Shown piece after piece: positions 6,850 to 63,669 of a stretch of 64,000 nucleotides of DNA. The notes under the pieces were generated by a model. The model saw only the letters and a program-made list of their open reading frames with translations, did no database searches and was not told the DNA's origin. The stretch's first letter is position 1; each line of letters begins with the position of its first letter. The DNA comes from Lytechinus pictus (Eukaryota), in NCBI RefSeq assembly GCF_037042905.1, contig NC_087251.1, positions 12,092,001 through 12,156,000 of the forward strand. The letters run 5' to 3'. Made by a program: the position numbers and the translations under genes.

Positions 6850-7272
6850 TCGGGGCAGTTCTATAGTGAATGCATTGGATTACGATTTTTTCTGGATACG
6901 TCAATAATTAGGCAGCTATAAGTTATTAATTCCCATTCGTTCGAGATATACACGTACCCTGGGACTGATTGCACGATTGCAAGAGCCGTCTTTCGTGTCG
7001 CCCATTTATTATGATGCACCATGTGAAACACATTTTTAAAAAATACCTGCAAACATATTTCATTCATCTGTTATAAAAAGTAAACAAAATATTTGTTTAC
7101 TTGATTGTGTGATATCTCATGAAATTCTATAAAGATTTATTTAAGAGCTAGCTAAATAATTTATTTGTTTATCATAAATTTCAGAAATATCCCGCATACA
7201 GCACATCAATAAAGAATGGGGGACACGATAGACGGTCCTTCGGCAAAGACCCTTTCGTGCAATCGGCCCATC

Positions 7273-35957: not shown

Positions 35958-36533
35958 AGGTCGAGTCCACCCCAGAAGAATGTTGATTTGAAAAAAAAGA
36001 GAAAAGACAAACTAGCATAATGCTTAAAATAGCAACATCGAAAGTTATGACATTTTAAAGTTTCGCTTATTTTTCACAAAACAGTGACAATGCACAACTC
36101 CGTAACATGCAAATGAGACAGTCGATGACCTTCCTCACTATTTCTTTTTTTTTTTTTGAATTATACGATATTTCATTTTTTTTTACAGATTTGACAAGGA
36201 CCAACTTGACTGAACCATATATTATTAAACATTGCTAATTCCACATGTCCAGGGAGGATTTAATCGTTGTTTCACTGAGGACAAAATTAGAATATTTCAT
36301 AATTCATATAATAAAATACAAAAGAAATAGTGAGTGGATGACATCATCAGTCTCCTCATTTGCATACCGACCAGGATGTGCATATAACTGTTTTGTGAAA
36401 TTAAGCGAAACTTTAAAATGTCATGACTTAATTTCTAATTTTTCATCCGATTTTTAAGGAGTTTTCAGTGTTATGCTAGTTGGATTTTTCTCCTTTTGTT
36501 CAAATCAACTTTTTAATGGGGTGGACTTGTCCT
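35958..36533. mobile_element. Kolobok/T2-type MITE, family B
   Basis: TTAA-AGGTCGAGTCCACCCC ... GGGGTGGACTTGTCCT. Confidence 0.8.
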
Positions 36534-38128
36534 TGGGTAAAAACAGGTTTGTTTCATGATATACTAATGGTCGATTTTGTTTTCTCAAAGGGCAAGTCTA
36601 CTCCAATGAAACTTATTTGATGAGTGGGGGAAAAATCAAACAAGCACAATGCTGAAAATGTCATAAAAATCGGATGCAAAATAGGCCTATGACATTTAAA
36701 TGTCGCATATTCTTCACATTTGTATGCCCAGTGGTATTTGTAAAGACTGTTCTCTCTAGATTGCGATCAGGGGAAAATCCAGTTAGATTGAAGTTTCAAT
36801 CTAAGAGATTTGGGTGTCAATCTTATTCTATTGAAACTTTCGATCCAATTTTTGATTGGTCCCTGACCACAATCTGTCAGATAATTTAGACTTTCAATCT
36901 ACGGAATTTAGAGAGAATTCTTTCCAATGTGGAGGAGGGGAATAGAAAATAACAAATTAATGATCAAAGACATAAAAAGGCTAATTTCTAAGTATCTTTA
37001 TTGTAATAAATCAAAACGAATTATAACATAATACTGATGATTGGAATAATAAATAAGCAAATTAATATTAACATTAACATGTAGATAAAGACACAAATTA
37101 TTAATGTACAGTAAAACTCAACACATATCCTTCAGCGTACATCACACATGGAATGCCCAATCTATAGTATACAAATTTACTTAACAGAAACAACCATACG
37201 GGGGGAAGGGGCTAGATTAAACTTTCTAATACAAATTAGATTGATAACACTAAGTTAGGGATAATGTTATAGGGATCATAAACACATCATAAATCATTCT
37301 TTTAAAGGGGACTGTCCCATTATTCACAGTGGTATCATCCATAATCGATGCATACGTAGAACTGCTATTATTTGCCCCCCCCCCCTCCATGCAATATGGG
37401 ATCTCCTTTTTTTCTTCTATTGTGACCACGGTGGTGAGGAGTCATCAATGTTATGTAAAAGGAATTTTCACCACTGTTTTGGGATATATGATATCATATA
37501 TATATTTTCAAATGTTTCATTCTGGGTAAGAAACCTAGAAGTAAACATTTAAGCTCTCGCTTCGCATTTATATACTAGTAGTTCACACCACCATCTATGT
37601 ATAATTGAGACACGTCCGTGAATTCCTATATACAGGTCCTACATAATCTACATTCCTTCAAATGTTCCATTTTCAAGTAAGTATTTCAAAATTAAATTTT
37701 TACAAACAGTCCTTTCTTTTTTCAGTATCTCCAAGAATTTTCGCATGATTCTTTAGTGAAATACGCATCGTATTCATGCCTACAATATAAGTATGAAATC
37801 GCCCTTTTCTGATCAGTATTATAGGAAAATTAAATTCGCGCTCGTAGGTCTAAGGAGTTAAAGGAATTATAGGCCTATATATTATTCACAGAAATAATCT
37901 TACAAAATGACTATCTCTCCCACTCCAACTTTTCGCTGTTAGTGTATAGCCATTCTGTGGGAAATGTGGCTTTTCCTCAGCCCCCCTCCCCCCCCCAAGA
38001 TAATGCTATACTCACATTTTAAATATAATGATTATCAAGTTAGTATACTTTTAATATGTTTTATTGACACTATTTAGCAAGTTAAACAATCTGGAAATTG
38101 CAACATATACAGGGAATAAATATCTCCA

Positions 38129-38935
38129 TCATTCCCAGGTACTTTGCATCGTATTATTCTCGGTATTTTCGGTTGCTTTAATTTTCTGCTTTATTTTCCT
38201 TATCGGAAAGCCAGTCGTGAATTGGATTTTCAGTGAGTAAGTTGTGAGTTCATACTTTTTTAGCAATTTATCTTGCCTAAAACCACTTTTGGATATATTT
38301 TTCCATTGTCTCTTTATGTACTTTAGTTTCCCTTTCAATAGGCGAATATTACCCAAATCCACCTTATCTTCCGGTATATGATATCGACGGAGTATGGAAG
38401 CAAAACATTTGTGGACATTCTCATCGTTGATAAATCCCTTGGTTTCTCTTACCAAGTTGAATAAAATGATGTTTGGAACATCAATTTCAATTGTATGAGG
38501 CAAATCGCCATCATTATCAGTTGTGTGCACTGGACTGTTTTGGGCTGTCGTGGGCCTATAATTTTCATCAATTCTCCTTATCGGAAACTGACAGTCAGGC
38601 TTGAAATGGATTTTCATTGAGTAAGTTGTGGCGTTATATTTCTTAAGCAATTTATCACGTCTGTACCCACTTTTGGTATTTTTCCATTGTCTCCATGTAT
38701 ACTTAAGTTTCCCTTTCAATAGGTGAATATTACCAAAATCTACCTTATCTTCTGGTATATGATACCGATCGAGTATGCAAACAAAACTTTTGTGGACATT
38801 CTCATCGCTCATAATTCCCTTGATTTCCATTATCAAATTGAACAAAAAGATGTTTGGAACATCGATTTCAATTGTATGAGGCAAATCGTCATTTACAGCT
38901 GTGTGCACTGCACTCGCTTGGCAATCCCCATCCAT
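38129..38935 (-). CDS. Uncharacterised 268-aa basic protein with two tandem ~127-aa repeats (paralogue A)
   Basis: Uninterrupted 807-nt ORF in AT-rich DNA. The paralogue at 54763-55518 is also open. A conserved upstream splice acceptor at ~39460 suggests it lies in a large terminal exon. Confidence 0.65.
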   Translation of the reverse strand: MDGDCQASAVHTAVNDDLPHTIEIDVPNIFLFNLIMEIKGIMSDENVHKSFVCILDRYHIPEDKVDFGNIHLLKGKLKYTWRQWKNTKSGYRRDKLLKKYNATTYSMKIHFKPDCQFPIRRIDENYRPTTAQNSPVHTTDNDGDLPHTIEIDVPNIILFNLVRETKGFINDENVHKCFASILRRYHIPEDKVDLGNIRLLKGKLKYIKRQWKNISKSGFRQDKLLKKYELTTYSLKIQFTTGFPIRKIKQKIKATENTENNTMQSTWE

Positions 38936-39639
38936 AGTATGTCAAAAACGGTAGCACTTACAGAGTAGACATAAACGTCGAAAGAACCATTAATGGATAG
39001 AATAGCCAAGATTTCATACAAGTTTTGTTCTTCCAAAAATAAAAATGGCGAGCATTCAACAGCATACGATATAACTATGTCAAATGAAATTAAAATAGGT
39101 TCCAGGAGGGGTTACGAAACCGTCCTTCTTCTTCTGTTAGATTCACAAGTTCACTGATAAAAACTTGGTGTTATGGATGCAAGAGAAGGTATGATTCCTG
39201 ACTATCCAATGTAAAGAAGCCTTTATAGTCCACAGTAATTTTCATTTATCGATGCATTCAAACGCATGTACACTCCAATGTAGTTTATATTCTTTATTCT
39301 GAAATTTTCATTCAAACTGTTCAACTAAAAAGGTGATCAGGAGGTGGTGCATATACTGATTTGTATTGCTCAATTCTGATTTGCCCATGTCGAACAGCCG
39401 TATAGTTGTTGTAATCCGTTGACCGTTGGTTCTTACAATCCACCATCGAGTCTTTCAGTTCTGATGAGTAAAATATAAATAAAAGAAATAAAGAAAGTAG
39501 TGTTATCAGTTTCATAAAAAAGAATATATATAAGTGGATAAAATATGTGCGCGATTTTCACGCTAACCCCCCCCCCCCCACCAAAAAAAAAATGGTACGA
39601 GTCTCGCCTGATATCGCGATCGATAAAATATGTGATATG

Positions 39640-40100
39640 ATGATATTTTGACCTCATTATTCTCATGAACACACAAGGGTAAACACAATTTATGAGAAAA
39701 TAAAGAAAAGAGAGCAATTTGAACAATAACATGACTTTTTGACCCCTAGATGACCTTTGACCCCACCACTCTCATGGGCACACATGTGGTACTACCACTT
39801 TGTACCAAGTGTGAACATAATTGATGCAGAAATAAAGAAATGAGAACAATTTCAACAAAACTTGACCTTTTGACCCTAGATGGAATTTGACCCCATCACC
39901 AAGTATCAACATAATTGATGGAGAAATAAAGAAATAAGAGCAAGTTGAACGAAAACTTTAACATTATATCATTTGACCTTTTGACCCCTATATGACCTTT
40001 AACCCCATCATCCTCATTGACATACATTACCCTAGGATCATGTAGCAAGTGCCAATAAAATTGAGACAGAAATAGAGTAATGAGAGCAAGTTGAACAAAA
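39640..40100. repeat. Degenerate ~110-130-bp tandem repeat (TTGACCCCTAGATGACCTTTGACCCC family)
   Basis: 3-4 diverged units; same family as 57950-58870. Confidence 0.7.
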
Positions 40101-40166
40101 ACGTTTTGTACGCTGCCCAGTTATTTGAAATTACAATCATCCATTTACTGATACCGTCATTATATA

Positions 40167-42233
40167 CACAACAAAAAAAGTAAGTCCCCCCTTAAACAAA
40201 CATCAATCATTTCCGAACCAATGCGAGTTTTTAATATATTTTTACATGAGCGTGTAGGTAATTTTATAAGCTATACCCTCTGAGTAAATGTTATGGACGT
40301 ATTTTACGTCATGCCTCAGTGAGCACCGTCAGAAGGCAAACATGTCACTTTTCAAAAGTTACGAGCCAAATATCATGACTTTGATTCCATTTTATTGGAA
40401 CTAATTCCACATTCTCATCATGAAAAATAGTCAGAAGGCTTGTAAAAGGTACTTTCTAAAAGACGATACAACTTTTTTGGCTAAATTTCACGGTTGAATA
40501 AACACAAGACCAACTTTGTTATAATTGGATTTTTTACACATTTCTATCAATACAAATGATAGAATATGATGACAGTTATTTTTGGTAAGAGTATCTTCAA
40601 CAATATTCATCGTTTCACGGTTTAATGAACATTTATTGAAAACAAAAAATACGATTTTCAAATATCATAGGCAAGTATTGTTTCATTTTGGTAACAGTTC
40701 GTAACTGAAAATGATATTTTCTCAACTTTTTCGTCATGTTCATGACCAATTAACATGCTTCAATGATTCAAAGGCGTTTAATTAAACATTCAAATTGAAT
40801 GAACATGTGGAGTGTGATTAGCTCTTTTGTACGTTATTGGAAAAAATGCAATTTGTAACTATGGATATCTGTCACAAACCTCCTTGCATAGTTCATTTGA
40901 TTTGATTTTTATGAAAATCCCGATGTTTAATGCATCAGTGAGCACACAATATTCGAAAATTATGCAAATGAGAAGAAAGTTCAAGGCCTTGGCCCCACTC
41001 TGTGCCGTATCGATTGGTGTGCGCGTGTTTTGGATAGTGTTACTCTGAAGCCATGTGCGAAGTTTCATGAAATAACTGTTAGCAGAAGTAACAAAAAACG
41101 TCCATGAAACAAACACTCATTTCATATTTGTTAAAATTTTGACTTCCTCTCTCATAGACTTGTGTACATTATGGATGCATATTATGTTTAATAAGTAAGC
41201 CCTTATTCAATATGGTTGAACTTTTTTTCAAGTCTGTCTTTAGCAATGTCGTTTGGCAGTAATATTTATCAACCTATGGGCAGAATTCTGTGCAAAAATG
41301 AAATCGATTTGTTTATTTATGGATGAGTGAGCACGCATCAAAGTGGGAAAATTTTCAATGTCACAGACTCATTTTAAAGGGTAATAAAGTGAATATTGGG
41401 GGCAAATTCGGTTTCAAATGTGACTTTAATTGTTGTTGTTTTTATCATCCATCATTTCTATCACCACGCACTTTCCGAACTTTAAACATTTTCATGGTTG
41501 AGCGAGCACATTCGAAAACTTAGGAATGAATACTCTTTATACTGCATAAATGTATTCTTTTCCTAACAATTTCTCAGGATCAGTTGAATGTATGGACAAA
41601 TCAGTGGTGGATCCAGAATTTTAAAATGGGGGAGTGGCCTATAATCGGGGGAGCCACCAACATTTTCAAATTTTAACATGTTCTAACAAGTTGTAGAGGA
41701 TACTACCATAAACCCCTATGATGATACGTCACAATACAGGGGCCGCGGAACGGTTTTCAAAGTGGGGGAAGGGGGGCTGACCATGCAAAAAATCACAATC
41801 GTTTGGTCATTTTTACATTTTTGTACATGCTTTTGGAAAAAAAAGTGGGGGCTGAAGCCCCCCCCCCCCCGCTTCCGCGGCCCCTGCAATACATTGTGCT
41901 CACTCAGCCATGAACATACGATATCAAAATCTGGTCTGAAGTGGTTAAATGATGGATAGTAAAACAGCATAACACCATAAAATTCACCTAAAAACAACTT
42001 TTGCCCAACTTTGTATTTGAACAAACTGAAAAACGACTCTTGTGACTTAAAAAAATTGTCATTTTTAATTCAATCTTTAATTACTCATGCATGACTCAAC
42101 CGATCAATCTCATTTTTCTCCAGGACTTGCTTAATGAGTGTAGAAAACCACCTATAAAATATCATATCTCAAAATAATTCGCTTCAAAAGTTACAGCAAT
42201 TTGATTTAGGGGGGACTTACTTTTTTTGTTGTG
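40167..42233. mobile_element. 2-kb non-autonomous DNA transposon with CACAACAAAAAAAGTAAGTCCCCCC TIRs and TA flanks; nested 150-bp MITE at 41737-41886
   Basis: ~25-bp TIRs with TA on both sides. The nested element CAGGGGCCGCGGAA...TTCCGCGGCCCCTG is flanked by CAATA/CAATA. Confidence 0.85.
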
Positions 42234-43169
42234 TATAATTTCAAATGATCAAAGATGACCAAAATGACCTTGAAAATACAAATCGTAACTTTGGTCAAGT
42301 TTTTTTTATGTAGATACCGAGAGGCAAAAGAAACTTCTGGGGCAGTTACGCGAGCGTGGACTAATAATTTTTCTTACGTAAAAAATATATGCGTATCACG
42401 TTAAAAAAATAATGAAAACTCGAATCCAGAGCAGAAAAGATTGGAGCGTACAGACATCAAAACGGGATATTTTAAGCCCCGTGTTAGCTCTTAAGCGGAT
42501 TACTGTCTCATTCAACAAACAACAATTCGAGGACGAATCGTAAGCGAAATTATCATCTTTATAATAAATGATCTAAAAGTGTTTATGATTCTGGCCCGGC
42601 CATTGACATGATGGACAGACATTGGTAAATATTAAATTGTACACTATTATTGCTAAATGGTTCTGGTTTTTGCGTAATGCGACTTTGCGGGATCTCTTCA
42701 ACCATGCAATAGGTGCATGCTGCAACGAAAGTGAACTGAAAGCTGAGGTTACTGAACAGAGAAAAGTGTCAAAAATTGAAAAAGTGAAAAGTACTATTTC
42801 AATTGGTGCACTTTACAGCTTGCGTATGATGCTTTATGCTTATGACAATTACTATATATCTTTGTTTTTCAATATTTTGAAGGGGGGGGCATGCAACGCT
42901 TCGAACTGGGAGCACATGCCCAAAATAACCCCCCCCCCCTCCGTTGGTGCTGCCACTACTGGCCTTGATCATGTGACCTGAATCACATGCCGCACGACCA
43001 ATGAGACTTGTATATACACAAGTTTCATGAAATATGTCCTTATACTTTCAAAGTTATGATGATAATTCAGAATTGACGTTGGCGACGCCGCTATCAGAAA
43101 GGCGCTGCCCCTGACGCTTCTTTTATGCAGGCGAGACAACAGAAATTTACACATCTTCTCTATATTTAA

Positions 43170-43738
43170 AGGACAAGTCCATCCCGACAAAAAGTTGATT
43201 TGAATAAAAAGAGAAAAATCCAACAAGCACAACACTGAAAATTTCATCAAAATCGAATGTAAAATAAGAAAGTTATAACATTTTTAAGTTTCGCTTAATT
43301 TCACAAAATAGTTAAATGCACATCCCGGTCAGTATGCAAATGAGGGAAGTGATGACATCACTCACTCACTATTTCTTTTGTATTTTATCATATGAAATAT
43401 TATAATTTTCTCCTCATTGTCCTGTGAAACAAAGTTTATTTTGCCCTGAACGTTTGGAACTACTTTATGGTTCAGTCAAGTTGGTCCTTATTGTCAAATC
43501 TGTAAAAATTGAAATATTGTATAAATCAAACAATAAAAAAAATAGTGAGGGACATCATCGATTCTCTCATTTGCATGTGACTAAATTGTGCATAGCTATT
43601 TTGTAAAAAATAAGAGAAACTTTAAAAGGTCATAACTTTCTTATTTTTCATCCGATTTTGATGAAATTTCCAGCATTATGCTTCTCTGATTTTTCTCTAT
43701 TGATTCAAATCAATATTTTTCTGAGGTGGACTTGACCT
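43170..43738. mobile_element. Kolobok/T2-type MITE, family B (intact)
   Basis: TTAA-AGGACAAGTCCA ... TGGACTTGACCT-TTAA. Confidence 0.9.
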
Positions 43739-44348
43739 TTAAATACATCTTATGCAAGTCATCTAAGACTTATTATCTCCATGCATCATTTTATTAGGCA
43801 CTATCATTGACACGATGAAATAATTCAAGACTCGTCAGGGGGGGGGCAGGGATATGTCCCTTGCATGGGTTGTGACTCGTCAGGGGGGCAGTCTGCCCCC
43901 CCCCCCCCCGTAGGTACGCTAGTGCCTGTGATGTTACAAACCACATGCCTCCATGAACACATCCTAACTTCAAGATTTATACGGGGGGGGGGGGGGAGGT
44001 GGTCAATGTCACAAATACATGTAGTTGAAAGCGTCGGCAACGTCACTGTGTAATGTCTATAATTACCTAGGGTATAATTACGAACGCATATTTTTGTGTG
44101 TGGTAGAAAATAATATGCCGTCGGTTCTCGGAGCTCCAACAGATTAGTAGCCTGCAGGCAAATATCCTCGATTTTCGCTGTGCGAATCGCAGAGGGCACA
44201 ATGCAAAGTTTGAATTAGTGAGACTAGATTCACTATGTACTGTGGCTGGCTCTACACAGACAATCTTCGGAGTCTAGTCTTTACTCTAGACCTGTTATTG
44301 CATGGTTGAAGTATCAAATATGACACTTCAATATTATTGTCAAATTGT

Positions 44349-44650
44349 GGGCGCGTCGTGGTCTAGTGGTTCTGACTCTCGCCTTTCAAACAGAGGGTCG
44401 TGGGTTCGAACCCAAGCCATAGCGTGTTCAGCAAGAAATTTATCCACACTGTGCTGCACTCAACCCAGGTGAGGTAAATGGGTACCGGCAGGAAAAAAAT
44501 CCTCAAAAAGCTGTATAGGTAGCCTAAAAAGCTATGTAGCCTAGCTTAGCCGGGTAATTATAATAGCAGGGCTGCCCCGCTGGGAGAACAGTTTTCGTAA
44601 CTGACGTGGCTACTGGGTAAATATGCCGTTATCATTATTATTATTATTAT
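44349..44650 (+). mobile_element. Full-length tRNA-derived SINE
   Basis: A box TGGTCTAGTGG, B box GGTTCGAACCC, body CACTCAACCCAGGTGAGGTAAATGGGTACC, (ATT)n tail. Confidence 0.9.
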
Positions 44651-44990
44651 GAGTCTGTGCTTGCAGACCCGGGCTTGCAGACTTGGCCTAGATAGACCTA
44701 TGGGCTATATAGGCCTAAATCAATTAATGGCAACTATCGTTGATTTTAAGTATGAATTGCAGACAGCCTACATTGTAAAAAAATTAAAAAATACAACGCA
44801 GATATATGCAGGAAATAGAAACCATTTACATGGATGCAACTATAAAGATGGGGGTGGGCTTTATTCAACAAGTGTGTCTTCATACAAGACTAGGTCATGA
44901 AAACAACTTCAACGAGAGGGCCTTCTGTGTACTAAAGGCCTGAAACAGCTGCGAGAGCCTTTGCGTGGAGAGTAGACACCCACTTTTTAA

Positions 44991-45775
44991 AGGTCCAGTC
45001 TACCCCAGAAAATTTTTAATTGGAAATGATAGAGCAAAATCAAACAAGCATAATGCTGAAGATTTCATTATGCTGAGGATGTAAATTAAAAGATATGACA
45101 TTTTAAGCTTTCACTTATTTTCACAAAACAGTTATATTATGCACAATACAGTGATATGCAAATGAGAGACGATGATGTCCCCACTAATTTTTTTTTTAAT
45201 TATACAATATTTCAATTTTTACAGATTTGACAAGGACCAACTTGAATCCTAAACTCTTAAAATAATGTTATACCGAGGTTGTTTTACCTGACTGCTAAGA
45301 AAGCACGAATGCCTGTGAGCAAGCAACCAGTGGACCAACGGCTTAAGGTCCTCTCCGAGGGACCTGGTAATGAGGATAAATGCCTTACCAAAGGGCACTA
45401 GCGCACCACTTGGGAATCGAACCCGGGTCACCGGAATCCGAAACCCCCGCTCTACCGACTGAGCTATCGCGCCTCCCCTAAATGGTCAACGTTCAGGGAG
45501 GAATAAAATTTGTTTCACATGACAATGAGGAGAATATCAGAATTTTTCATATTTCATATAATAAAAAATACAAAAGAAATAGTGAGTGACGTCATCAGTC
45601 TGCTCATTCGCATACCGACTAGCAGGATTTAACTGTTTTGCAAAATTAAGCGAAACTTTAAACTGCCATATTTTTCTTATTTCAAATCCGATTCATTTGA
45701 CGAAATTTTATTGTTTTGCTTGTTGGATTTTCTCATTTTATCCAAATCAACTTTATATTGGGGTGGACGTGTCCT
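44991..45775. mobile_element. Kolobok/T2-type MITE, family B, interrupted by a SINE
   Basis: TTAA at 44987-44990 and 45776-45779; family B ends. Confidence 0.8.
45259..45478 (-). mobile_element. Full-length tRNA-derived SINE
   Basis: Minus strand begins GGGGAGGCGCGATAGCTCAGTCGGTAGAGCG (A box) ... GGGTTCGATTCCC (B box), followed by a non-tRNA body shared with 33789-33931. Confidence 0.9.
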
Positions 45776-45836
45776 TTAACAAACTTTCAACCAGGGCCTG
45801 TGCATGGCACCTCCCGAGACTAGACGGAAGGGGGGT

Positions 45837-47885
45837 CAGTCAGTCGGCAGGTCCCAAGAAAGTGGCTTCTTTCATCCAAGTGATATTCATGACTTGAGAT
45901 GTTTTGCATATATATTTAATGAGCTTGATGCGGACCAAAACACCTCTTTTCATTCGGTCATTGCTGCTCTAATTGTGCATCGAATTTCATGATTTTGGTA
46001 TCATTGTAAAGAAGAAGAATCATTCTTTCACGTCATGTGTTTGAATTTATTCAAAGATTTTGTAATATAGGTTAAAATTTTGATCTAAAATATGCTACAA
46101 AATAATTATTTTCACCTGACAAAAGCTGCTATTTTCACACTTTATTTTTGTTTGAGCCCAATGATGTTTGGATCCTGATAAAGCTGAGTATGTATCCTTT
46201 AAGGACGTTCCACAGTTAAAGTGAAATCCATGTCATTTTCACCAAACTTTGCACATAGATACTTTAGAACCTTAATATTCGAAATATGCAAAAATTAACA
46301 TAGGTCCATGTGCTTGATTTTTTGCTATAGAGCTTCAAAGTTCACCCAAATTGATGTTCTTAAGAATTGCGCATTCAAAAGAATTTGGCATTTTTAGACC
46401 GCCCAAGATTACTACAATGAGTTTAAACCTCCATTATTCATTCAAAATACATGAAAAAGTCATCAAATTTCGCAAGAGAGTTAATAATTGTATCGTTAGA
46501 ATGGAGAATCTATTAATAGTGCTATTTGTTTGCAATTTTAAGTTTAACAGCACTGTCAGTTCTTAAAAATGGCGTAAAAGATAACAAAATCCCAATCTAA
46601 AAAATGTAAAATTTCAGTAACAAACTACAAACGTACAATAAATGCTGCACTTTATTCAAAATCCATGTCATTTTCACCAAAATTTGCAGAGTTGTAGAGG
46701 AAGGTATACCTAAGAGGTACAAACATTAAAAAATAGGGGTTCATGTGCTTGTTTTTAAACTATCGGCATTTTTATTAGAGCAAATGTGCTTTTTAAAACA
46801 CCAAAAAATGGGCCGAATGCTTAGTATCTATGTGAAGAAAAAATCAAAACCACTCTACCATTTATTCAAACTCGGGCTAATATTCGTGATTCTTGGCAGC
46901 ACTGCAGAGTAAAGTATTTTGAAATTGTAGAGAATATTTTTTTGAATGGTCCATGGAATAATTCAATTTTTTAGCTTCATGAAATAACGCATCGGATCTG
47001 CAGTTAAAGTGCAGAAGATGAGAAAAATCAGCTCATACCCGCAGCTAATTAATCACCTGTTCATCCATTGTGACGTCAGCGCGCAGAGTGTAAACTATGC
47101 GCAGATCATAATGCGCACAAATATAACTGTGGAACGTCCTTAAAATGGTATAGGTTTCAAAATAAGAATTGGTTTAATCGGGTCAAGATCACACTTTTCA
47201 TTGGCCAAGTACATAAAACAGCTTGAAAACAAAAATACTGCACTCCGATTGGTCAAAGAGACCACACACTGGCAAATTCCAACGGTTCCAGTGCCTGGTT
47301 CATGGGAAGGTCACACTTCCCATGTGGTAATCTCCTCAAATTACCCGCGCCTGTTGTTCTGCGAACCTTATCCAGCCAATCAGAACTCTGGATTTCATGC
47401 AAGTACAAAATTTCAGAAATCTCGTCTTGTACCTTGGTGGGAAAAATGTGATCTTGACCCTTAAAGTTGTTATAGTATACATCTCTATGTCTTGACCCGA
47501 TTAAAAGGTGCCGCATATCAAGAGTGGCATTGTGAGAAAGTACAGAAGTTCAGCTTTATGGTGATATATGTATCATTGAGGCTCAAAATAAAAAGTTTTG
47601 CACAATTTGCAAAAGAAAACAGAGGAAGAAAATTCAGTTTTGAGGCACATTTTCAGGCCAGAAATGTACTTATTTATCAAAATATTGTATACAAAATAAA
47701 CGACCAATATGAAAGAATAACAATTACTCTATCTGATGGTGCAATGATATTTCATTTAACAGGTAAATTCTTAGAGAAAGAAAATCTCACGAATCACGAG
47801 ATTTTGCAAGGAGGATTCAGCCACGAGATGATTTGGATAAATCTGGCCTTTTTGCTCATTAGCATAGGGACCTGCGGTCTGACTG
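45837..47885. mobile_element. Non-autonomous DNA transposon with CAGTCAG.C.GCAGGTCCC TIRs and nested elements (46203-47139; ~47178-47500)
   Basis: 19-bp imperfect TIRs with GGGT on both flanks. The nested GGACGTTCCACAGTTA...TAACTGTGGAACGTCC element is flanked by TTAA. Confidence 0.75.
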
Positions 47886-48606
47886 GGGTTTGGCAGACAC
47901 TGCTGCTTATGTAGCTGCTTGCAATTTGACTTTATGTATTTTTTGTTTTACTTAAGTCTAAATTTCAAGGCTCACCTTAATTCCAATCTTTGCTCCTAAT
48001 CTTCGAGACGAATGTCTTCTTTGGCCGGAGATGAGGTTGCGTTGCTACAACATCATGGGTCTCAACTATCAACAGCATATAGTTTCACCCAGCATGCCCG
48101 GTAGACAACAGAGATATTGATATCTATTGACTATAAACAAGGGCACCTCCCTAGGCTGTGCACGTTATAGTTTCACCGCAGCCAGAAAATTAGACTTTCT
48201 CAACGCTTTTCGAGTAGATCTATGGGCGACGAAGCATTCGAAAGCCTGTGTTGAGTTTCAAATTCCAGTCTGCTTGCTTGCTGTAGGGCTGTAGGGCTTG
48301 AAGAGAATTTCGTGATCTCTTCGTGTTGGGAGCAAGGCCTATCACGATTGCTGTCACACCTAGTCTGCAGGCACAGACTCTTATTTAAACTTTGATTAAC
48401 GAGTGTGTCTCCACGCAAAGACTAACACATACACAACTTGCAGTACACAAGGCACAAGTAAGCTGCACATTCAGACCCTTCGAGTGAACGTTTGCACAGA
48501 AGACTCCACATGGCATTCGGGTCATGGTTTGCTTAGTCTGCAGGCACAGACTTGTTTTTCGCAAGATCTTGTACTTGTTATACAAACAGTCAGAATTAAT
48601 CATGAA

Positions 48607-49199
48607 AGGACAAGTCCACCCTAAAAAAAGGTGAATTGAATAAAAAGATAAAAATCCAAGAAGCATAACGCTGAAAATTTCATCAAAATCGGATGTAAAA
48701 TAAGAAAGTTATGACATTTCAAAGTTTCGCTTTATTTCACAAAACAGTTATATGCACATCCTGGTCGGTATGCAAATGAGGAGACGGATGACGTCATCCA
48801 CTCACTATTTCTTTTGTATTTTATTATATGAAATATAAAATATTCTAATTTGCCCCTCATTGTCAAGTGAATCAATGATTAATTCCTCAATGAACATGTG
48901 GAATTAGCATTGTTTAATACTATATGATTCAATCAAGTTAGTCCTTATTGTAAAATCTGAAAAAAAATGAAATATCGTGAAATTCAAACAATAAAAAACA
49001 AAAGAAATAGTGAGTTTCTGTTTCATTGGCATGTCACTGAATATTGTACATAATGACTATCACCGTTTTGTGAAAAAAGGCGAAACTTTAAAATGTCAAA
49101 ACATTCTTATTTTACATCCGATTTTGATGAAATTTTCAGTGTGACGTTAGTTTGATTTTACTCTTTTTATTCTAATCAATATTTTTCTGGGGTGGACTT
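48607..49199. mobile_element. Kolobok/T2-type MITE, family B
   Basis: AGGACAAGTCCACCC ... GGGGTGGACTT; homologous to 43170-43738. Confidence 0.8.
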
Positions 49200-49860
49200 T
49201 ACAATGCCAAAAACATATTCTTTCGAAGAACCCTTTTCCCCTTTCACCGTGGTAGACTATACCTCCATGCTAGAGAAGAATGGTTGTTGTGGGATGTCAC
49301 TCGCCATATTTTATTGTTTGAAGCCGTTTTTTTTTCTTCAGATTTCAAACAAACACTATTCATCGAATCAAAATAGATTACAAGAGTGTCAATTCCTCAT
49401 GGTCAGGGAGGACTGAACATAGTTTCACATTATCATGAGAACATTAAAATATTTCATGTAGGCCTAATATGTCCTTGATTCTTTTGCATACCGATTAAGA
49501 TGTGCATGTGACCGTTTTGTGAAAATCAATAAAAATGTCATAACTTAATCGATTTTTATTAATGTTCATTGATTTTTTCGCAAAAAAATGTGCACTAAAA
49601 AGACACAAAAGCGCCTCGATTTCAAGATTCTTCAAAAAAACCTAACTCTCCAACCCCTGCAATAGCTCTGTGTACTGTGCGCCCTAAATGCCACAAAAAA
49701 TGAACCCTTTAAAAATAAATGAGGCTCAATTTGCGCCTCCTCCCCAATCCAGAATTTCTTACGCGCGCCTGGCTCCTCATATAGAAAACAGAATGTTGTT
49801 CAAGGATTTCATTCGAATCGCAGTTTGAGAGAACCCCCCCCCCCTTTCCAGAGGTCCTCT

Positions 49861-50018
49861 CTCATCATCATCATCATCATCATTATAATCAACATCATCA
49901 TTATAATAAACATCAATATTATAATCAACATAACATCATCATTATCAATTCATCACCATCATCATCCGTCATCATATAATCATATAATCATCATTCATCA
50001 TCTTCACAATCAACATCA
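49861..50018. repeat. Degenerate (ATC)n microsatellite
   Basis: CATCATCAT... run with ATA/AAC variants. Confidence 0.9.
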
Positions 50019-51876
50019 GTTTTCCCTTCCTCCTCATTTATGTAACAAATATGGGGTCATCCCGGTGACCCGGTCGGTCAGCTCATTAAGGTCATCGCAT
50101 GTAACATGTGTGACCCGGACCAGAGTCCTTAATGTCGGTCCTACTGAATATGCATTCTTCCAATTAAGGTTGTTACAACCCCAAACTTCCCTTGTTTTAG
50201 AGTGAACTGGAAAAATACGTACTTCATAATCTTTCGTTTTTTCACATAACAAATAAAATCAGCTGTCAAATAGGGCCTACCCAGGATTTCATACCATAAA
50301 TGTAAAAAGTCGAGCAGAAATTAAATGTGATCAAGAGAGAGGGGGGGGGGGAGAGAAGCGATAGGGGGATAGGAAGGCGGAGGGGCCGGGATTAACAAAA
50401 AACTTTCAGGACATTGTAATTGTAAAGACTGCATAATTATGTTTCTCCTTCTTTTCAACATAAAATTCAGAAAAGGGTCGATTTTATCCTTGAAGTGGAG
50501 ATAGTTGGAAAGAAACGAAGTGATCGAAGACATACAAGGCTAATTTCCAAGTATATTTTAATTGTAAAACAATCAAAACGAAGTATAACATACTTAAAGG
50601 ATTAATATCAAATTACACGTATATTGATAACGACAGAACTTATCAATGTACGATAAAACTCAACAGAACACATATCGTTGAGCGCACATCACACATGGAA
50701 TGCTTTACTCTATTTACAAATTTACATAACCATGATAACAGTAACAACCATAATACGGGGGGGGGGGGCTAGATTAAACTTTCAAATCATTTGAATATTA
50801 GATTAAAACATTAAGTGGAGCGATGTCCAAGTTTCATGAACCAGATCACAAAAAATTCAAAGTTATGATGCAAATCAACAAATATATGGCCAAAGTTCAT
50901 TGCCCCTAAATGACCTTTGACCTTGGCCATGTGACCTGAAACTCGGGCAGAATTTCCAATAATAGTTAATCACCCTTATGTCAAAGTTTTATGAACTAGG
51001 TCCATATACTTTCTCAGTTATGATGACATTTCAAAAACTGAACCTTTGGTTAAAATTTGATGTTGACGACGCCGCCGTCGCCGGCGGAAAAGCGGTACCT
51101 ATAGTCTCACTCTGCTATGCAGGCGAGACGGAAAAAACCGTTAGGGACAGAGTTATAGATGTCATAAACACATCGTAAATAAGTGGTGTCATTAACTCGA
51201 TGCATACCATGAACCTACTACAACTGCCATTAGCGTACCTAAGGGGGTGGGGCAGACTGCCCCCCCCCCTGACGAGTCACAACACATGCAAGGGACGTAT
51301 CTCTGCCCCCCCCCCCCCCTGACGAGTCAAAACTGATCCCTGACGAGCTAAGTGGGCCCCGCCTTTGAACTTGAAGACAAATAATGAGAATGTTATGAGC
51401 ATTTGAATATTGCGATCACTAATGCCATGGAGATCCTCATATTGGCAATGTGACAAAGATGTGTGATGTCACTTGTGAACAACTCTCCCCATTAGTTTAG
51501 TATATATTTCACTTAAATTGCCTCTTTTATCACATCTATCTGTAGATCATGTGTTCTTTCTGTAGGAGGGCATGTAATACAGATTTTAAAGAATACATCA
51601 TGGATAAAGAGTTTGTATCACCCTAAGAAAGAGCAAAAATTGACATTTTGGTGGTATTTTACAGTCCATCAAAGGGAAAGTTGTTCACATGTGACATCAC
51701 ACATCCTTGTCGCATTGCCAATGGAGGATCTCCATAGCATTAGTGATTGCAATATTCACATGCTCATAACTTTCTCATTATTTGTCCGATTTTTCTCAAA
51801 CTTTCGTTGATCTGTTTATTTTATTTTTCTGTTTCGACACAAGCCTACTTGTTCCAAAGGCTCCATTCTCCTTTAA

Positions 51877-52625
51877 CCCTAAAGAGACTGGGCTATTTCG
51901 ATGCCTAAGAAGACTTGGGGGGGGGGGGGGGGCTGATTCAGCCCCATATGATCTCGACCGCGCGATCGCGACGAAAGTTGGCACGTGCATTACCCATGGC
52001 ATAATCTCCAAGACTGTAGGATCAAATTTTCCGAAAAATCTCATAATTCATTAATTATGCTAATTTATGCGTAAAATCAAACATTTGCTCTAATTAACTA
52101 AATAAGGCCTCTAAACTGCTAATTTTTATTCACAGACTCTTTGAAGGATTCTGATCAAATGTACTTAAAAAAAATTCAATATCACAATTCTTTTTTTATG
52201 TAATTTTATTGTTTTTAAAATTTCTTATGTATTTCTTTGTTTTTCGACTTTTTGTTTTTTATTGTTTTTTCAATGGAAATCGTCCGCTGCTTTATTTTGA
52301 CCATAAACAAGATGAAATTAATTGAGTGTGATTAGTAAAATTGAAAATAATGATACATTTATGAATTTTGGCTAAAAACACAATTTGCATTGGATTTGTA
52401 CACAAATTCACGTTTTTGAGCAATTTCGGGTCGACATGCACTTACAAAATGTTGCGTAATTGCGGAACCACGTACCCGGGCGTCGCAAATTTGGTCTCAA
52501 AAGTTGCGCAAGACTTGAAAGAAAAAGTCATGGAACGGCACGGCGCCAGCTTTTCGCGTTACAGATTTATCGCGAAAAATGTCGAGGGGGGGCTGAATCA
52601 GCCCCCCCCCCCAGTCTTTTTAGGG
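51877..52625. mobile_element. piggyBac-like MITE (intact)
   Basis: TTAA-CCCTAAAGAGACTGGG ... CCCAGTCTTTTTAGGG-TTAA. Confidence 0.9.
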
Positions 52626-53464
52626 TTAAGGTAAGAAACCTTGAAATAAACTTATGAGCTCACTCTTAGTTCGCATATACCGGTACACTGGGCGCTGGGA
52701 ACTTTATTTTTTACTGGGGGTGCTGAAGTAAATTTGATAAGCATAATAAAGGGGTTCACTACAGAATGGAGGTGGCTTCGGTCCCGAGAAATTTGACAAA
52801 AAAAGGATTTTCCTACAAAATGTCGTTCATTTTGGTTACATGTGTGTGCCATGGCATACCTTCCAGGGGGTGCTGCCTATGGAATATAACACACGCAGCA
52901 CCCCAAGGAAAATCTTGGGGTGCCCGCCGCTTCCCAGGGCAATGACTACCTAGTCTGCAGGCACAGATCCTGATTGAAATTTTGATCAGCAAGTGTGTCT
53001 CCACGCAAAGACTAGCACATACAAAACTTGCTGTTTCAATGCAGGCGAGAGGGCCTTCAGTACACAAGGCATGAGTAGGCTGCACATTCAGACCCTTAAC
53101 TCGAGTGAAGGGTTTGCACAGACAGCAGACGAATGACTACCACCAATGTTCGTGAATTCTTATACATAATCTACAGTCCTTAAATGTTTTTTTCATGTCA
53201 GTATAACAAAAAATATCAATATTGACCTCGTGTTTTGGGCTTGCAAAATATTATCGTGACTAATGAATTTCTACGAACAGTCCTGTCCTTTTTCAGTATC
53301 TCAAGGAATTCGCATAGTGAGATAAATCATCGTATTAATGCGTACAATAAACTAAATTAAATTGCCCCTTTCAGGTCAGTATATATATATAAATATCAAA
53401 TTCGCGCTTCACGCTTGCATTGTCAGGTTAGGTCTAATGAATTATAAAAAAAACCCCAAAAATT

Positions 53465-54523
53465 TGACGTGTCCAAAGGACACAGATGCCCCCTCTTAAC
53501 GCGATCAGAAATTCATTCAATATGATTGAACTTAATATCGTGCAGAAACCAATATGCATATATATAATGAACAAATTTAGACCTTTGAACCAATTTGCAT
53601 ATATAATGAGCTGTGACCTCTGACCTGCGGACTCCGAATTCGAACTTAGCTTGCATTTTGCTTGTATTTTGGTGTTATCTACCTACACACCCCAATATTT
53701 CTAAATCTGTTGAATATTTCATAAGTTATCATGCGGAAACCAACTCGCATATATAGTGAGCTGTGACCTGCGGACTCCGAATTGGAACTTAGCAGCTTGT
53801 ATTTTGGTGTCATCTACCTACACACCCCATTTTTTTAAAAATCTGTTGAATATATTTCATAAGTTATCATACGGAAACCAAGTCACATATTTAATGAGCT
53901 GTGACCTTTGACCTGCGGACTCCGAATTCGAACTTAGCCTGTATTTTGGCGTCATCTACCTACACACCCAAATTTTTAAAAATCTGTTGAATATTTCCTA
54001 AGTTATCATGTGGAAACAAACTTGCATATTTAATGAGCTGTGCCACTCGCATATTTAATGAGCTTTGACCTGTGGACTCCGAATTCGAACTTAGCCTGTA
54101 TTTTGGTGTCATCTTCCTACACACCAACAATTTTTAAAATCCATCGAATATTTTTCGAGTTATTGCGTGGAAACCCACTCGCATATTTAATGAGCTGTGA
54201 CCTTTGACCTGCTGACTCCGAATTTGAACTTAGCCTGTATTTTGGTGTCATCTTCCTACACACCAACAATTTTTAAAATCCATCGAATATTTTTCGAGTT
54301 ATTGCGTGGAAACCCACTCGCATATTTAATGAGCTGTGACCTTTGACCTGCGGACTCCGAATTCGAGCTTCGCCTGTATTTTGGTGTCATCTACCTACAC
54401 ACCAAAATTTTCTTAAATCCATCAAATATTTTTCGAGTTATTTCGCGGAAACCGAGTGGGGGACGGACGGACAGGGGCAACGCTTAATGCCCCCTCCGGA
54501 CTTCATCTGCGGGGACATAAAAA
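53465..54523 (-). mobile_element. Second HINE-like element with ~6 internal 139-bp tandem repeats
   Basis: GAGCTGTGACCT recurs at 53608, 53758, 53896, 54035, 54192 and 54331. Terminal hairpin ATGCCCC...GGGGACAT followed by an A-run. Absent from the paralogous position at ~37.9 kb. Confidence 0.7.
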
Positions 54524-54762
54524 ACTTGTATATAATTGTTTAAGCTCTCCCACTCCAACCCGGCTTTTATCTGTTAGAGACAAGAGACAATGCTATACAC
54601 GCATTTTAAAATACCGATTACTGAGTTAGTATAGGCCTACTTTGAATATGTTTTATGAACACCGTTTGGCAAGTTGAACGAATATATCTCTGGAATTGAA
54701 ACATATACAGGGAACTCATTATGGTACTGGGCATCGGATTATGTTTTTTTTTTTCGGTTGCC

Positions 54763-55518
54763 TTAATTTTCTGCAATTCTCCTTATCGGAAAGCCAGTCT
54801 TAAAATGGATTTTCAGTGAGTAAGTTGTGATGTTACATTTCTTTCTAAATTTATCACGCCCGGAACCACCTTTGATATGTTTCCACTGTCTCCATATGTA
54901 CATTAATTTACATGTTAATGGATAAATATTACCAAAATCTACCTGATCTTCTGGGATATGATACCGACGGAGTATGGAAGCAAAACATTTGTGGATATTC
55001 GCATCGTTGATAAATCCCTTGATTTCTCTAACCAAGTTGAACAAAAAGATGTTTGGAACATCAATTTCAATTGTGTGACGCAGATCACCATCATCATCAG
55101 TTGTGTGTACTGGACTGTGTTTGGTTGTTGTAGGCCTATAATTTTCATCAATTCTCCTTATCGGAAACCGACTGCCAGACTTGAAATGGATTTTCAGTGA
55201 GTAAGTTGTGATGTTATACTTCTTTCTAAATTTATCACGCCCGGAACTACCTTTGATATTTTTCCATTGTCTCCATATGTACATTAGTTTACATGTTAAT
55301 GGATATATATTACCAAAATCCACCTGATCTTCTGGGATATGATACCGACGGAGTATGGAAGCAAAACATTTGTGGACATTCCTATCGTTGATAAATCCCT
55401 TGATTTCTCTAACCAAGTTGAACAAAAAGATGTTTGGAACATCGATTACAATTGTATGAGGCAAATTGACATCACTATCAGCTGTGTGCACTGCACTTGC
55501 TTGGCAATCCCCATCCAT
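54763..55518 (-). CDS. Uncharacterised 251-aa basic protein with two near-identical 127-aa repeats (paralogue B)
   Basis: Uninterrupted 756-nt ORF with 381-nt internal repeat spacing. Same MDGDCQASAVHTA start as paralogue A. Upstream acceptor at ~56097. Confidence 0.65.
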   Translation of the reverse strand: MDGDCQASAVHTADSDVNLPHTIVIDVPNIFLFNLVREIKGFINDRNVHKCFASILRRYHIPEDQVDFGNIYPLTCKLMYIWRQWKNIKGSSGRDKFRKKYNITTYSLKIHFKSGSRFPIRRIDENYRPTTTKHSPVHTTDDDGDLRHTIEIDVPNIFLFNLVREIKGFINDANIHKCFASILRRYHIPEDQVDFGNIYPLTCKLMYIWRQWKHIKGGSGRDKFRKKCNITTYSLKIHFKTGFPIRRIAEN

Positions 55519-56644
55519 GTCTACACAGATAATATCGCTTAGAAGAAAACATTAAAGGTTTTATACAAGCTTTTATGACAAGCGTTCAGTAGCATACAAG
55601 ATAGCTATGCCAAATGAAATGAAAGCAGGTTTCAGGAGGGGCTAATACTTAAACCTTCTCTTTGTTAGATTCAATAATTATGAGTTAAGAGTCTATAAAA
55701 ACCGCAGTGAAATATGTTTATAATTATCTAATCTAATATGTCTTTCGATCCTGAATACATCCCTCTTCTCGTTCAATAATGACTGTCTAGTGAGACTTTC
55801 GTAGTGTTGGTGCATGGGGTAGTCGTATCCTGAACAAGTTCGGTTTTCTGGATGCAAGAGAAGGTCCGAAGTCCAGACTGTCCAATGTAAAAAGCCTTTA
55901 CAGTCCATGAGGCATCTCAATGCATGTACTCTCCAATGTAGTATATTCTTTATTCTAAATTACTGTTCAACTTAAAAGGTAGTCAGGTGATCAGGTGGTG
56001 GTGTATAATGTCTGATACTGATGATTTGTCCATGTCGATGAGCCATTACCGTCGACCGTTTGTTCTTCCACTCAGCCGTCAAGTATGTATAAGTTTCTGA
56101 TTGATCAATATGGATAAAAGAAAAAAAAAAGTCATATTATCAGTTTGATTAAAAAACCCAAAATGTTTTAAAGTGGATCAAATACACAGTACATTCATGG
56201 CCCTAGGAAGCGGGGTTGCTGAAGCACCCCCAAGATTTTCCATGGGGGTGCTGCGTGTGTTTTCTCCATAGGCAGCACCCCTTAAATTCTCGTATGCAAA
56301 CTTGAGAAATGTAACCACAATGACCTTAAATTTGTAGTGACTCCATCCCCTGTTTTTTTTTTTTTTTTTGCTTTACAATTTTCTCTGGACAAACACCCCT
56401 TTTTTTTGCTTGTAAAATTTTTCGTGACCAAACTGACTAGCTTCATTATTGCATTGATATCCTTTTTTTGCTTGTCAAACTTACATCAGCACCCCCTGTT
56501 AATAAAAAAATCAATCCCAAGGCCCTGAATACACTCCCGATTTTCACGCTTAGCCCCCCCCCCCCCCCCCCCAAAAAAAAAAAAAAAAAAAAAAAAAAAA
56601 ACGCTGTTTCATTTATTTTATTTCGACACGGTACACGTACTTCA

Positions 56645-56784
56645 GGGGCCCGTTTCATAAAGAGTTACAACTGTTGTAACTTTGCCAATATGGCAACTAC
56701 CTTGGTAACAGGGCTCAGCAGCCAATCAAAATCAAGGTTACCATGGTAGTTGCAATAGTTATAACTTTTTATGAAACAGGCCCC
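56645..56784. mobile_element. Harbinger-like MITE with X-box/CCAAT-like motifs
   Basis: CAG-GGGCCCGTTTCATAAA ... TTTATGAAACAGGCCC-CAG; same family as ~31358-31527. Confidence 0.8.
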
Positions 56785-57949
56785 AGGAAAGGCTATTCTT
56801 CAGAACTTCCGTGTTTATTAGTTTTAAGTATGTTGTTTCAGCCAGTCACTCTATACAAGTAATACAACTATAACAATTATTAAAGTTTTAATCAAGTTAT
56901 TGAAACGTTTAAACGATTTAAAAAATGTTCAGACTTGTTAGAGAGTTAGAGCGCACTGCATGCATGACTGGTTTAAATAACATGCTTGTTTATTTATTTT
57001 TACAGTGATGGGATCTTTAAATTTGTTTTTGTTATTCATTAAATAGTTTTTAACAAATAACAAAAATACAGTTTTAACAATTAATTCATCTGTTTGACCT
57101 TGACCCAGTGACGTATCATTAAATTTAGGTAATCGTAAATTGTGATAACCGACATGTCGGATTGTCCTAGTTTAATTAAATAAGGACTTCATATTTCAAC
57201 AACAAAAATATTTTTTCAGTTCAAAATATCAGCCTTTGGTTAACGTTTTGAAGTTGAAACCAGCTAGTTTACTGACCCTAAAGCTAGGGGTACACCTAAA
57301 CTGAATCAGCTGCAAATTCATCAGAATACACGTATTCGGGTGGATTCGGGAGATTCTGTTTTCCCTCCGCGAATGCGAGAAAATTTGGGAGGGATTCGGG
57401 AACTTGGCCTATACCGTGTCCGTGATCGTCATTATATTACAGTTTATGGTCTTGAAAATAAATATCTTAACTTCGGTCAAGTCTTATTTTATGTTGACAC
57501 CACAACATGGTGAACGTTCATTGAACCTGTTGACCAGAGGCAACACCATGATTTTTGTCATATATAGGGGGCAAGGGGAGGGGCAAAACCTCTGGGGCAG
57601 TTATCCGAGCGCATATTGTGGACTATTTTTTCTTACATAAAAATATTGTATATCGTTAAAACAAAATAATGAAAACTTTAATCCAGAGCAGAATTAATGG
57701 AAAACGGGATATTTCAAGCCCCATTTTGCTAGCTCTTAAGCGGATCTCAGTCCGATCAACGTGCAATTCGAGGACGAAACGTGAGCGAAATTTTCATCTT
57801 CATAAATTATCTGAAAGTATTTCTCTACCGGAATCCCGGCCCGGGACACTGACGAAAATTGGTAATCAACGTTACATGCACTTTTATTTCTAAATGGTTC
57901 TTGTTTTTAATATCAATAATAATAATAACGAGGTGGTTCACGAACCAAC

Positions 57950-60490: not shown

Positions 60491-60991
60491 ATGTTGTTTT
60501 GGAGCACTCTACATTTGAGTAGGATGCTTACGATAACAGTTAATACTATACATTTCATGCGTGTTGTTTTTAGTTTTGAACATTTTGGGGGGAGGGAGCG
60601 GCAGTCAAATATATTGCTGTACTCACGCGTGACCCAAAAAACGTGTTTAAAGGGGTGTTTTTTCAGTTTTGGACGCGGGCTGCGCTTGCACTAGTCCACC
60701 TCTTGGACTGTTGTTATTTGGTACGATACGACTACCAAACACATAACACACTACATCCCCAGAACACGCATACACACATCCCAGATTTTTTTCGGGGAAA
60801 GTGAATCAGTGGGTTAGGTGAATCAGTGGGTTAGGCGAATCACTGGGGGTAAGTGAATCAGTGGAGGGCGTGTGTGTGTTGGATATGCACAGAGATACGA
60901 TCTTACGTATAAGCTCCCGAAGGGAGCTAGAGAGGGAACTCTTTCCGCGCGTTTTTATTTCCCATAGGTTTTGTACATAGCCAACATGGCT

Positions 60992-63622: not shown

Positions 63623-63669
63623 GGACAATTTGAAGGTTGATTTTGGAGGGTCAATGTTTTATTCATGAG

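Follow-up and report, generated by a model that had tools for sequence, protein, structure and literature searches.

Two paired open reading frames (ORFs), ORF1 and ORF2, lie on the minus strand of a 64,000-nucleotide stretch of the Lytechinus pictus genome (assembly GCF_037042905.1, contig NC_087251.1, positions 12,092,001 to 12,156,000), referred to here as the window; positions are those of the window and feature coordinates are collected in Table 1. Both ORFs are fully open, encode proteins of 268 and 251 amino acids (aa) with isoelectric points of 9.3 and 9.6, and share the N-terminal start MDGDCQASAVHTA. Each is built from two copies of a single module, spaced 381 nucleotides (nt; 127 codons) apart, and the two proteins contain nothing beyond the module. 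Its folded core comprises about 95 aa; the four 95-residue cores (L1a and L1b at locus 1, L2a and L2b at locus 2) are 69–74% identical to the first core, and tblastn found no fifth copy in the window. An earlier sequence-only reading of this DNA had described the same pair, and its coordinates, identical start and four copies of about 127 aa are reproduced here. After a common FPIR motif the C-terminal tails are mutually out of frame (2-nt indel). We favour the explanation that the two ORFs are young host genes, each consisting of a doubled RAG1/Transib-type N-terminal domain with no catalytic core, maintained by selection and predicted to act as non-cutting regulators that bind DNA or chromatin.

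Selection and duplication history

Over 245 aligned codons, ORF1 and ORF2 show a nonsynonymous divergence (dN) of 0.139 and a synonymous divergence (dS) of 0.301, a ratio (omega) of 0.46 by the NG86 method (95% bootstrap interval 0.31–0.73; Fisher p 0.0006). A maximum-likelihood codon model with transition bias gives 0.50–0.55 (p 0.005–0.012), and the six module pairs range from 0.32 to 0.66. A dN/dS below 1, which serves as a criterion in PMC8700633, is thus found between the paralogues (p 0.0006–0.012), in agreement with the purifying selection proposed from the letters alone. Synonymous differences amount to 38.5 of 155 sites (25%) and the flanks differ by 20–27%; because synonymous divergence matches that of the flanks, the conservation of the ORFs is not explained by conversion between the loci.

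The pattern of insertions and deletions points the same way. The ORF alignment (735 bases) contains two indels, both of 3 nt. Five aligned flanking blocks (1196 bases) contain 34, of which 22 are not multiples of three, and the collinear blocks are interrupted by repeats, much as the sequence-only reading had described the homologous flanks. At the flank rate about 13.5 frameshifts would be expected in the ORFs and none was observed, an expectation tempered by the possibility that AT-rich flanks gain indels faster than coding-like DNA. In a neutral simulation both copies remained free of stops in 8 of 5000 runs. The ORF pair is therefore very probably under purifying selection and, as set out below, derived from the N-terminus of a transposase.

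The order of events that produced the four modules can be read from the distribution of their differences. At 16 of the 20 informative sites the grouping of the modules follows the locus; the start and linker instead follow position. This pattern would be explained by a tandem doubling, followed by duplication of the segment and then by conversion within each locus. Within L1a, at 38770–38837, there is also a cluster of private, mostly amino-acid-changing substitutions at positions where the other three modules agree, which may reflect relaxed or positive selection on this one module.

Transcription of the two loci

Reads or contigs from four of the 21 listed runs were aligned to 37400–42800, an interval that covers locus 1 only. 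Runs X1, X5 and X8 consist of contigs and X19 of raw reads from a stranded library, sampled at about 6 in 100; none of the listed runs is registered as RNA. The X1 pieces align to locus 1 at 37549–37834, 37806–38093, 38066–38405 and 38559–39461 with 0–1 differences, and the fourth record stops at 39461, which is the predicted acceptor, leaving 27 further letters unaligned. The splice acceptor suggested earlier at about 39460 is therefore supported both by an AG at 39462–39461 and by the end of the contig. For the putative second junction, placed at about 56097, the sequence provides the expected AG at 56098–56097. Over 38124–39390, X19 has a depth of 0.07–3.8 with first mates on the plus strand only, which in most stranded libraries denotes minus-strand RNA; a bin just downstream of the ORF region shows a depth of 0.19 on the other strand. 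As a silent control, the interval 42287–42800, which looks unique in sequence, has zero depth in all four runs, and the homologous block at 42269–42671 was accordingly rejected as an unshown first exon.

Part of the signal appears to come from locus 2. Excess depth is seen in X19, X1 and X8 at 38305–38666, where reads from locus 2 could pass the 85% likeness required. All five X19 reads at 38632 carry the locus 2 letter together with at least 15 other differences (at least 17 would be expected for full-length reads), and X1 record 4 terminates at 38559, the very point at which 36 bases common to both loci would interrupt a contig. Locus 1 is transcribed, and the cross-mapped reads and the contig break indicate that locus 2 probably is as well. 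Transcription, a further criterion in PMC8700633, thus has its evidence at locus 1 in contigs guessed to be RNA and in low-depth stranded reads, and at locus 2 indirectly. Repeats in the intron reach a summed raw-read depth of 10–187, as against less than 4 over the ORF, and the X1 depth over 38848–39390 is that of one contig, which suggests, on the RNA side, that the ORF is not a high-copy repeat.

Contigs of a different source, organism B (X5 and X8), align over 38355–38986 without gaps, 21 of the 692 letters being different. Its pieces from the untranslated regions (UTRs) on both sides carry 50 differences in 955 letters and 23–38 gap letters each (ORF versus UTR, p 0.036), a comparison in which two runs are mixed, 51 UTR bases and overlaps are included, and only the longest pieces and best-supported differences are used.

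The structure of the transcript bears on the idea that a host gene lying upstream uses the two units, duplicates of each other, as alternative last exons, with ORFs that stay untranslated in the 3' portion of its transcript and are decaying, and a selection signal left from an earlier period. No upstream (first) exon was found in 37400–42800, and from the acceptor each exon has an open phase-1 frame, of 45 codons at locus 1 and 40 at locus 2. The ATG of ORF1 is preceded by 525 nt containing 12 upstream ATGs and that of ORF2 by 578 nt containing nine, such numbers being poor for scanning initiation; L1a has its many private amino-acid changes, and the tails are out of frame with one another. 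We nevertheless hold this idea to be quite improbable. The amino acids of the short frame are unconstrained (of 38 codons, 14 are identical, 4 differ only synonymously and 20 are changed) and a 45-codon open frame in some phase occurs at 26% of random positions, so that the frame open from the acceptor is likely due to chance. Both long ORFs are intact, and the pieces from organism B are free of gaps in the ORF but not in the UTRs. Three codons ahead of the ORF1 ATG the frame is closed by a stop, across which the X1 contig runs unbroken; for ORF1 this excludes a fusion entering upstream of the ATG, although one by way of the first exon and an acceptor inside the ORF would still be conceivable.

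The probable parent transposase family and the surroundings

Pfam gave no match at cut-off for ORF1, ORF2 or a single module, a search of PDB sequences gave three matches only at E 0.74–1.2, none of 315 candidates in a near-length homologue search scored, and the ESM Atlas gave no usable match to the module. A four-module profile compared with longer proteins found one match among 7987 candidates, the 749-aa protein P0003 (E 6e-12), whose residues 20–155 align pairwise with the module at 33–34% identity (E 2e-19). Two further full-length proteins, P0004 and P0005, have the same layout as P0003, with an identity of 58–62%. A HMMER scan of 1.84 billion representative proteins with a seven-row query then yielded 32 matches. 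Thirty-one contain exactly one module, at the N-terminus of the P0003-type family or in fragments of it; the remaining match, P0032, was discarded as a repetitive artefact, and the tandem form was found in none of the 32.

The module is thus not the orphan it had been called, given these 31 true single-module relatives, to which the window copies are only about 20–46% identical. The accompanying suggestion of an origin from the N-terminus of a DDE transposase is borne out by the profile, pairwise and HMMER matches alike: by sequence comparison the module is the N-terminal domain of a DDE protein family of about 750 aa, and likely a transposase domain without earlier description. Twenty of the 32 matches were looked up and four carried species names: Patiria miniata, Amphiura filiformis, Anneissia japonica and Holothuria leucospilota, that is a sea star, a brittle star, a crinoid and a sea cucumber, all of them echinoderms and all with proteins annotated as uncharacterised or hypothetical. 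In a 27-row tree (23 relatives with most of the module and the four window copies, shorter fragments being left out) the window modules form one clade with 100/100 support on a long stem branch of 0.79. Scans for the module pattern gave 593 matches among metagenome contigs and 215 among viral ones, none of which was confirmed. In the basic loop between the last two helices, locus 1 resembles P0014/P0038 and locus 2 the P0003–P0008 group, despite the recent common origin of the two loci.

The full-length relatives have the features of a RAG1-type enzyme. In P0003–P0005, D351, D428 and E685 lie within invariant motifs, a CxxC is present at 447–450, and the D–E spacing is 257, compared with 253 in RAG1 and 206–214 in Transib (PMC1131882). 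A Foldseek search with the low-confidence AlphaFold model of P0003 gave 49 matches at E<=0.001, and all 37 of those listed above the cut-off are RAG1, HzTransib or BbRAGL; in a VIA comparison, residues 304–438 of the same low-confidence model superpose on HzTransib with a Z of 8.0 and a root-mean-square deviation (rmsd) of 3.4 over 126 residues. Atlas features include DUF1280 (0.91), present on 51% of the cluster, and RAG1 RNase H (0.87); the recognition score falls slightly short of the tool's mark. DUF1280 is equivalent to Chapaev transposases and falls in one group with RAG1 (PMC3985635). P0003–P0005 therefore combine the DDE triad, a long D–E spacing and, in the low-confidence model, the RAG1/Transib fold. 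A parent profile compared with PDB sequences found no RAG1 or Transib chain, and none of 54 matches in prokaryote genomes was confirmed. From metagenomes one of 200 matches was kept, a 1290-nt fragment without the module; it carries a broken piece of the parent core (L001, 1105–1288) beside what is presumably a piggyBac-type remnant. Sequence motifs and the model together indicate that the parent is likely a DDE protein of the Transib superfamily (RAG1-type) and a putative transposase.

A further property of this family lies ahead of the module. A hydrophobic leader with a 9-residue Kyte–Doolittle peak of 2.56–3.91 is present in all 19 relatives with at least 29 residues before the module (P0003–P0006, P0008–P0010, P0013, P0016, P0018–P0021, P0023, P0025, P0027, P0028, P0031 and P0036), and many of these leaders end in a small-residue, P-x-x-A-like motif. 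Six relatives with shorter starts have peaks of −0.2 to 2.2, and for at least one of them the short start comes from a start called late in a sequence that has the leader (P0011 versus P0036). P0003–P0005 have no other strongly hydrophobic segment, and the full-length P0038 has none at all. Past the module, the family carries a conserved basic word, PxKRK. On hydropathy, the parent leader would be signal-peptide-like. The window proteins reach peaks of only 0.62 and 1.36 and retain the words that follow the leader. Among the relatives, P0014/P0038 (724 aa) is a full-length member without a leader.

Within the window the remainder of such a transposase is absent. Both tblastn and hidden Markov model searches with three full-length relatives match the four modules and no DDE core; neither locus is bounded by inverted repeats, except for copies of unrelated dispersed repeats; and terminal inverted repeats (TIRs) like recombination signal sequences, with a 5-bp target site duplication (TSD), which define Transib transposons in PMC1131882, do not occur as paired termini common to both loci. 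Single CAC-type heptamers are present at 37325 and 37427, neither shared nor paired, the region of the latter not being represented at locus 2. Within the window, then, the loci have neither the core nor the shared termini of a Transib transposon, as had been noted from the letters. Domestication is generally judged by lost mobility (no TIR, TSD or core), low genome-wide copy number and an intact orthologous site in another species, and loss of mobility is what the window displays.

These observations argue against the ORF being a cargo or accessory gene of a mobile element with copies elsewhere, in which case selection would act for the element rather than for the host. The sequence is transposon-derived, CAC-type heptamers occur at 37325 and 37427, and active elements can show dN/dS below 1. 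Against this, there are no bounding repeats and the 37427 heptamer region is missing from locus 2. The copies lie in the same orientation 16.6 kb apart, with flanks that are 20–27% diverged and riddled with repeats, as expected of an old local duplication. The contrast in RNA depth between the intron repeats and the ORF, the single-contig depth of X1 and the absence of a tandem form among the 32 matches also speak against cargo, which we regard as very doubtful.

The window as a whole is AT-rich animal DNA, and Rfam has no match in 36000–64000. The claim that every transposable-element ORF in it is broken was checked for two long interspersed nuclear element (LINE) remnants, at 2.5–6.9 kb and 12.2–14.1 kb; both are split over several frames, and the claim stands for these two. 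A gene with IQ motifs, which we take to be SPATA17-like, occupies 19148–26300 on the plus strand, with exon-like stretches at about 19.3, 23.2, 25.05–25.2 and 26.2 kb; with its exon-like stretches on that strand and at 19.3–26.3 kb, it was rejected as a gene to which the ORFs might belong. A 36-bp minisatellite of about 46 copies at 34299–35926 yields several spurious repetitive ORFs. GC-rich clusters of a 17–19-nt motif at 60982–61065 and 63467–63632, lying 2.4–2.6 kb apart and having 28-nt imperfect inverted arms, may mark the termini of an ancient non-coding DNA transposon, inside which lies a palindromic miniature element (61724–62309).

Table 1. Features of the window, with strand and the basis of each assignment.
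Feature	Positions	Strand	Basis or remark
ORF1	38129..38935	-	Open frame; dN/dS; X1 contig pieces with 0–1 differences
Module L1a core (95 aa)	38594..38878	-	Homologous to P0003 residues ~30–125; predicted strand, four helices, strand
Module L1b core	38213..38497	-	Sequence alignment
Transcribed exon, locus 1	37549..39460	-	X1 pieces; ORF1 with 525 nt ahead of its ATG and 580 nt or more beyond its stop
Polypyrimidine tract and AG acceptor, locus 1	39461..39500	-	Sequence and end of X1 record 4
Short frame, 45 codons	39321..39458	-	Open from the acceptor, phase 1; homologous 40-codon frame at 55972–56094
Collinear homology around locus 1	36237..42671		Blocks of 68–87% identity, interrupted by repeats
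Upstream non-coding block	42269..42671		Shared with 57451–57908
ORF2	54763..55518	-	Open frame; transcription inferred from cross-mapped reads and contig break
Module L2a core	55177..55461	-	Sequence alignment
Module L2b core	54796..55080	-	Sequence alignment
Polypyrimidine tract and AG acceptor, locus 2	56097..56140	-	Sequence homology; putative exon would begin 578 nt ahead of the ATG, at 56096
Collinear homology around locus 2	49391..57908		Blocks of 68–87% identity, interrupted by repeats
LINE remnant	2527–6879	-	zf-RVT, RVT_1 matches
LINE remnant	12161–14102	-	zf-RVT, RVT_1 matches

Predicted function and comparison with known systems

The module is confidently modelled (predicted local distance difference test, pLDDT, 94) as a strand, four helices and a strand. 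Its C-terminal half (residues 48–95) contains 11–13 Lys and Arg against 2 Asp and Glu, matching the Lys/Arg-rich helical end described previously. There is no invariant Cys or His in the seven-row alignment and no conserved Cys in the 27-row alignment. Homeodomain and histone-fold entries in the structure search are at background level, and the lack of a clear structural match does not show that the fold is new. From charge and ancestry, we tentatively suggest that the tandem-module proteins may bind DNA or chromatin, a role for which we put the chances at a little under even.

The position of the module in the parent also admits a different function. After the same origin, it could be a protein-interaction module that the host retains as a dominant-negative decoy, one that binds transposases of the parent family and either poisons them or sends them to wrong targets. 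In the parent the module occupies an accessory place at the N-terminus; a predicted long helix (P0003 residues 131–177) follows it, as does the region that in register corresponds to the DNA-recognition part of RAG1. The window proteins hold nothing except the module, and an omega near 0.5 together with the long stem branch would fit the tracking of a changing partner. Yet the modules are only distantly similar to their relatives, at the identities given above, and nucleic acid would be an equally good or better ligand for the strongly basic C-terminal half. This is the main functional rival to binding of DNA or chromatin, and we consider it unlikely. A related and similarly unlikely proposal is that a front domain of new fold was captured from an undescribed, leader-bearing RAG1-like family of echinoderms, dropped the leader and was doubled into a bivalent nuclear decoy that restrains the parent family through its DNA or its enzyme; if true, the loci would constitute a home-made, protein-based anti-transposon gene pair.

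Returning to young host genes for DNA- or chromatin-binding proteins, several observations weigh against that explanation, in addition to the missing first exon and the many upstream ATGs. The identification of X1, X5 and X8 as RNA is a guess, and the X19 raw-read depth over the ORF, below 4, comes mostly from reads that resemble locus 2. As each exon begins with a short frame open in one and the same phase, the ORFs might occupy second place on a bicistronic transcript, after a host frame. Contigs of organism B reach 11 letters into the intron, and nothing from this organism aligns on 37934–38354, which includes the last ~75 codons of ORF1; the last piece starts one module period away (38354 + 381 = 38735), which suggests that homogenised or extra modules were collapsed in assembly, deletion being the alternative. 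The intervals of two of the six module pairs include 1, so that selection is moderate. As to the parent, the AlphaFold model of P0003 has a mean pLDDT of 40.5, and among 16 members Pfam gave a sub-threshold RAG1 match in one. For the module, Foldseek found no match at E<=0.001, and the best of 48161 chains in VIA reached a Z of 4.6 (DUX4, rmsd 4.2 over 58 residues), with none at Z>=5. Finally, in the low-confidence model P0003 residue 303 corresponds to RAG1 residue 529, and the nonamer-binding region of RAG1 spans 387–480 (PMC1131882). This register would place a nonamer-binding-like region near P0003 residues 160–250, downstream of the module, which is probably not the TIR-recognition domain.

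If the loci are host genes, the following sequence of events may be envisaged. Of a transposon belonging to an echinoderm family, nothing but the 5' end would have remained, beginning with the start codon and ending shortly after the N-terminal domain, and loss of the hydrophobic core of the parent leader would have kept the product out of the secretory route. The N-terminal domain would then have doubled in tandem, a 6–8 kb segment carrying the tandem domain would have been duplicated, and later gene conversion would have homogenised the two modules inside each locus. With two basic helical domains per chain, the products could bind nuclear nucleic acid in an avid, bivalent manner; having no nuclease or effector domain, they would act by occupancy.

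The parents P0003–P0005 and P0038 resemble Transib, TransibSU, Chapaev, Chapaev3 and RAG1 in their RAG1-like DDE spacing and CxxC (PMC1131882, PMC4411706, PMC3985635), and differ from the Transib superfamily in having a signal-peptide-like leader and a non-zinc N-terminal domain; the window genes differ from it in having neither core nor TIRs. An accessory folded domain N-terminal to a RAG1/Transib core is also seen in the Chapa domain and the RAG1 NZD (bioRxiv 10.64898/2026.01.24.700457). Those domains are zinc fingers with conserved His/Cys ligands; the window module has no conserved Cys or ligand pattern, was for lack of a conserved Cys rejected as a finger of this kind, and is unrelated to the zinc-binding RAG1 N-terminus. 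The same source describes Transib N-terminal extensions as diverse and without NZD. A signal-peptide-like leader is unexpected in a nuclear enzyme, and the titles and abstract starts returned by literature searches held no description of the module, of the genes or of a leader-bearing Transib-type family, though Repbase or the supplements of surveys may list the parent.

In homology, selection, transcription and local immobility the window genes likely resemble other non-catalytic host genes derived from transposases. KRABINER-type fusion genes likewise reuse non-catalytic transposase domains, which entered the host gene via a splice acceptor, and for KRABINER sequence-specific binding has been shown (bioRxiv 10.1101/2020.05.07.082677); the window genes differ in showing no in-frame join to a host domain, ORF1 having its stop three codons ahead of the ATG, in lacking an effector domain, and in that their binding is a prediction. 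The closest likeness is to PlRAG1La and PlRAG1Lb, echinoid host genes from a RAG1/Transib-superfamily transposon that are reported to be immobile and expressed, one of which is proposed to lack nuclease activity (PMC9885083). There the catalytic core is kept, and PlRAG1Lb is without the N-terminal 407 aa (PMC9885083); in the window genes the core is gone and the N-terminal domain alone is kept and doubled. Domestication of transposases is well known, and the RAG1/Transib cases compared keep the catalytic core. In the present pair an unnamed accessory domain alone has been kept, doubled and duplicated, with the stages of truncation, leader loss, tandem doubling, gene duplication and conversion still readable in the DNA. 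The pair thus draws attention to a small, confidently predicted 95-aa domain without a clear structural match, and to a family of RAG1-like transposases in which a signal-peptide-like leader is conserved.

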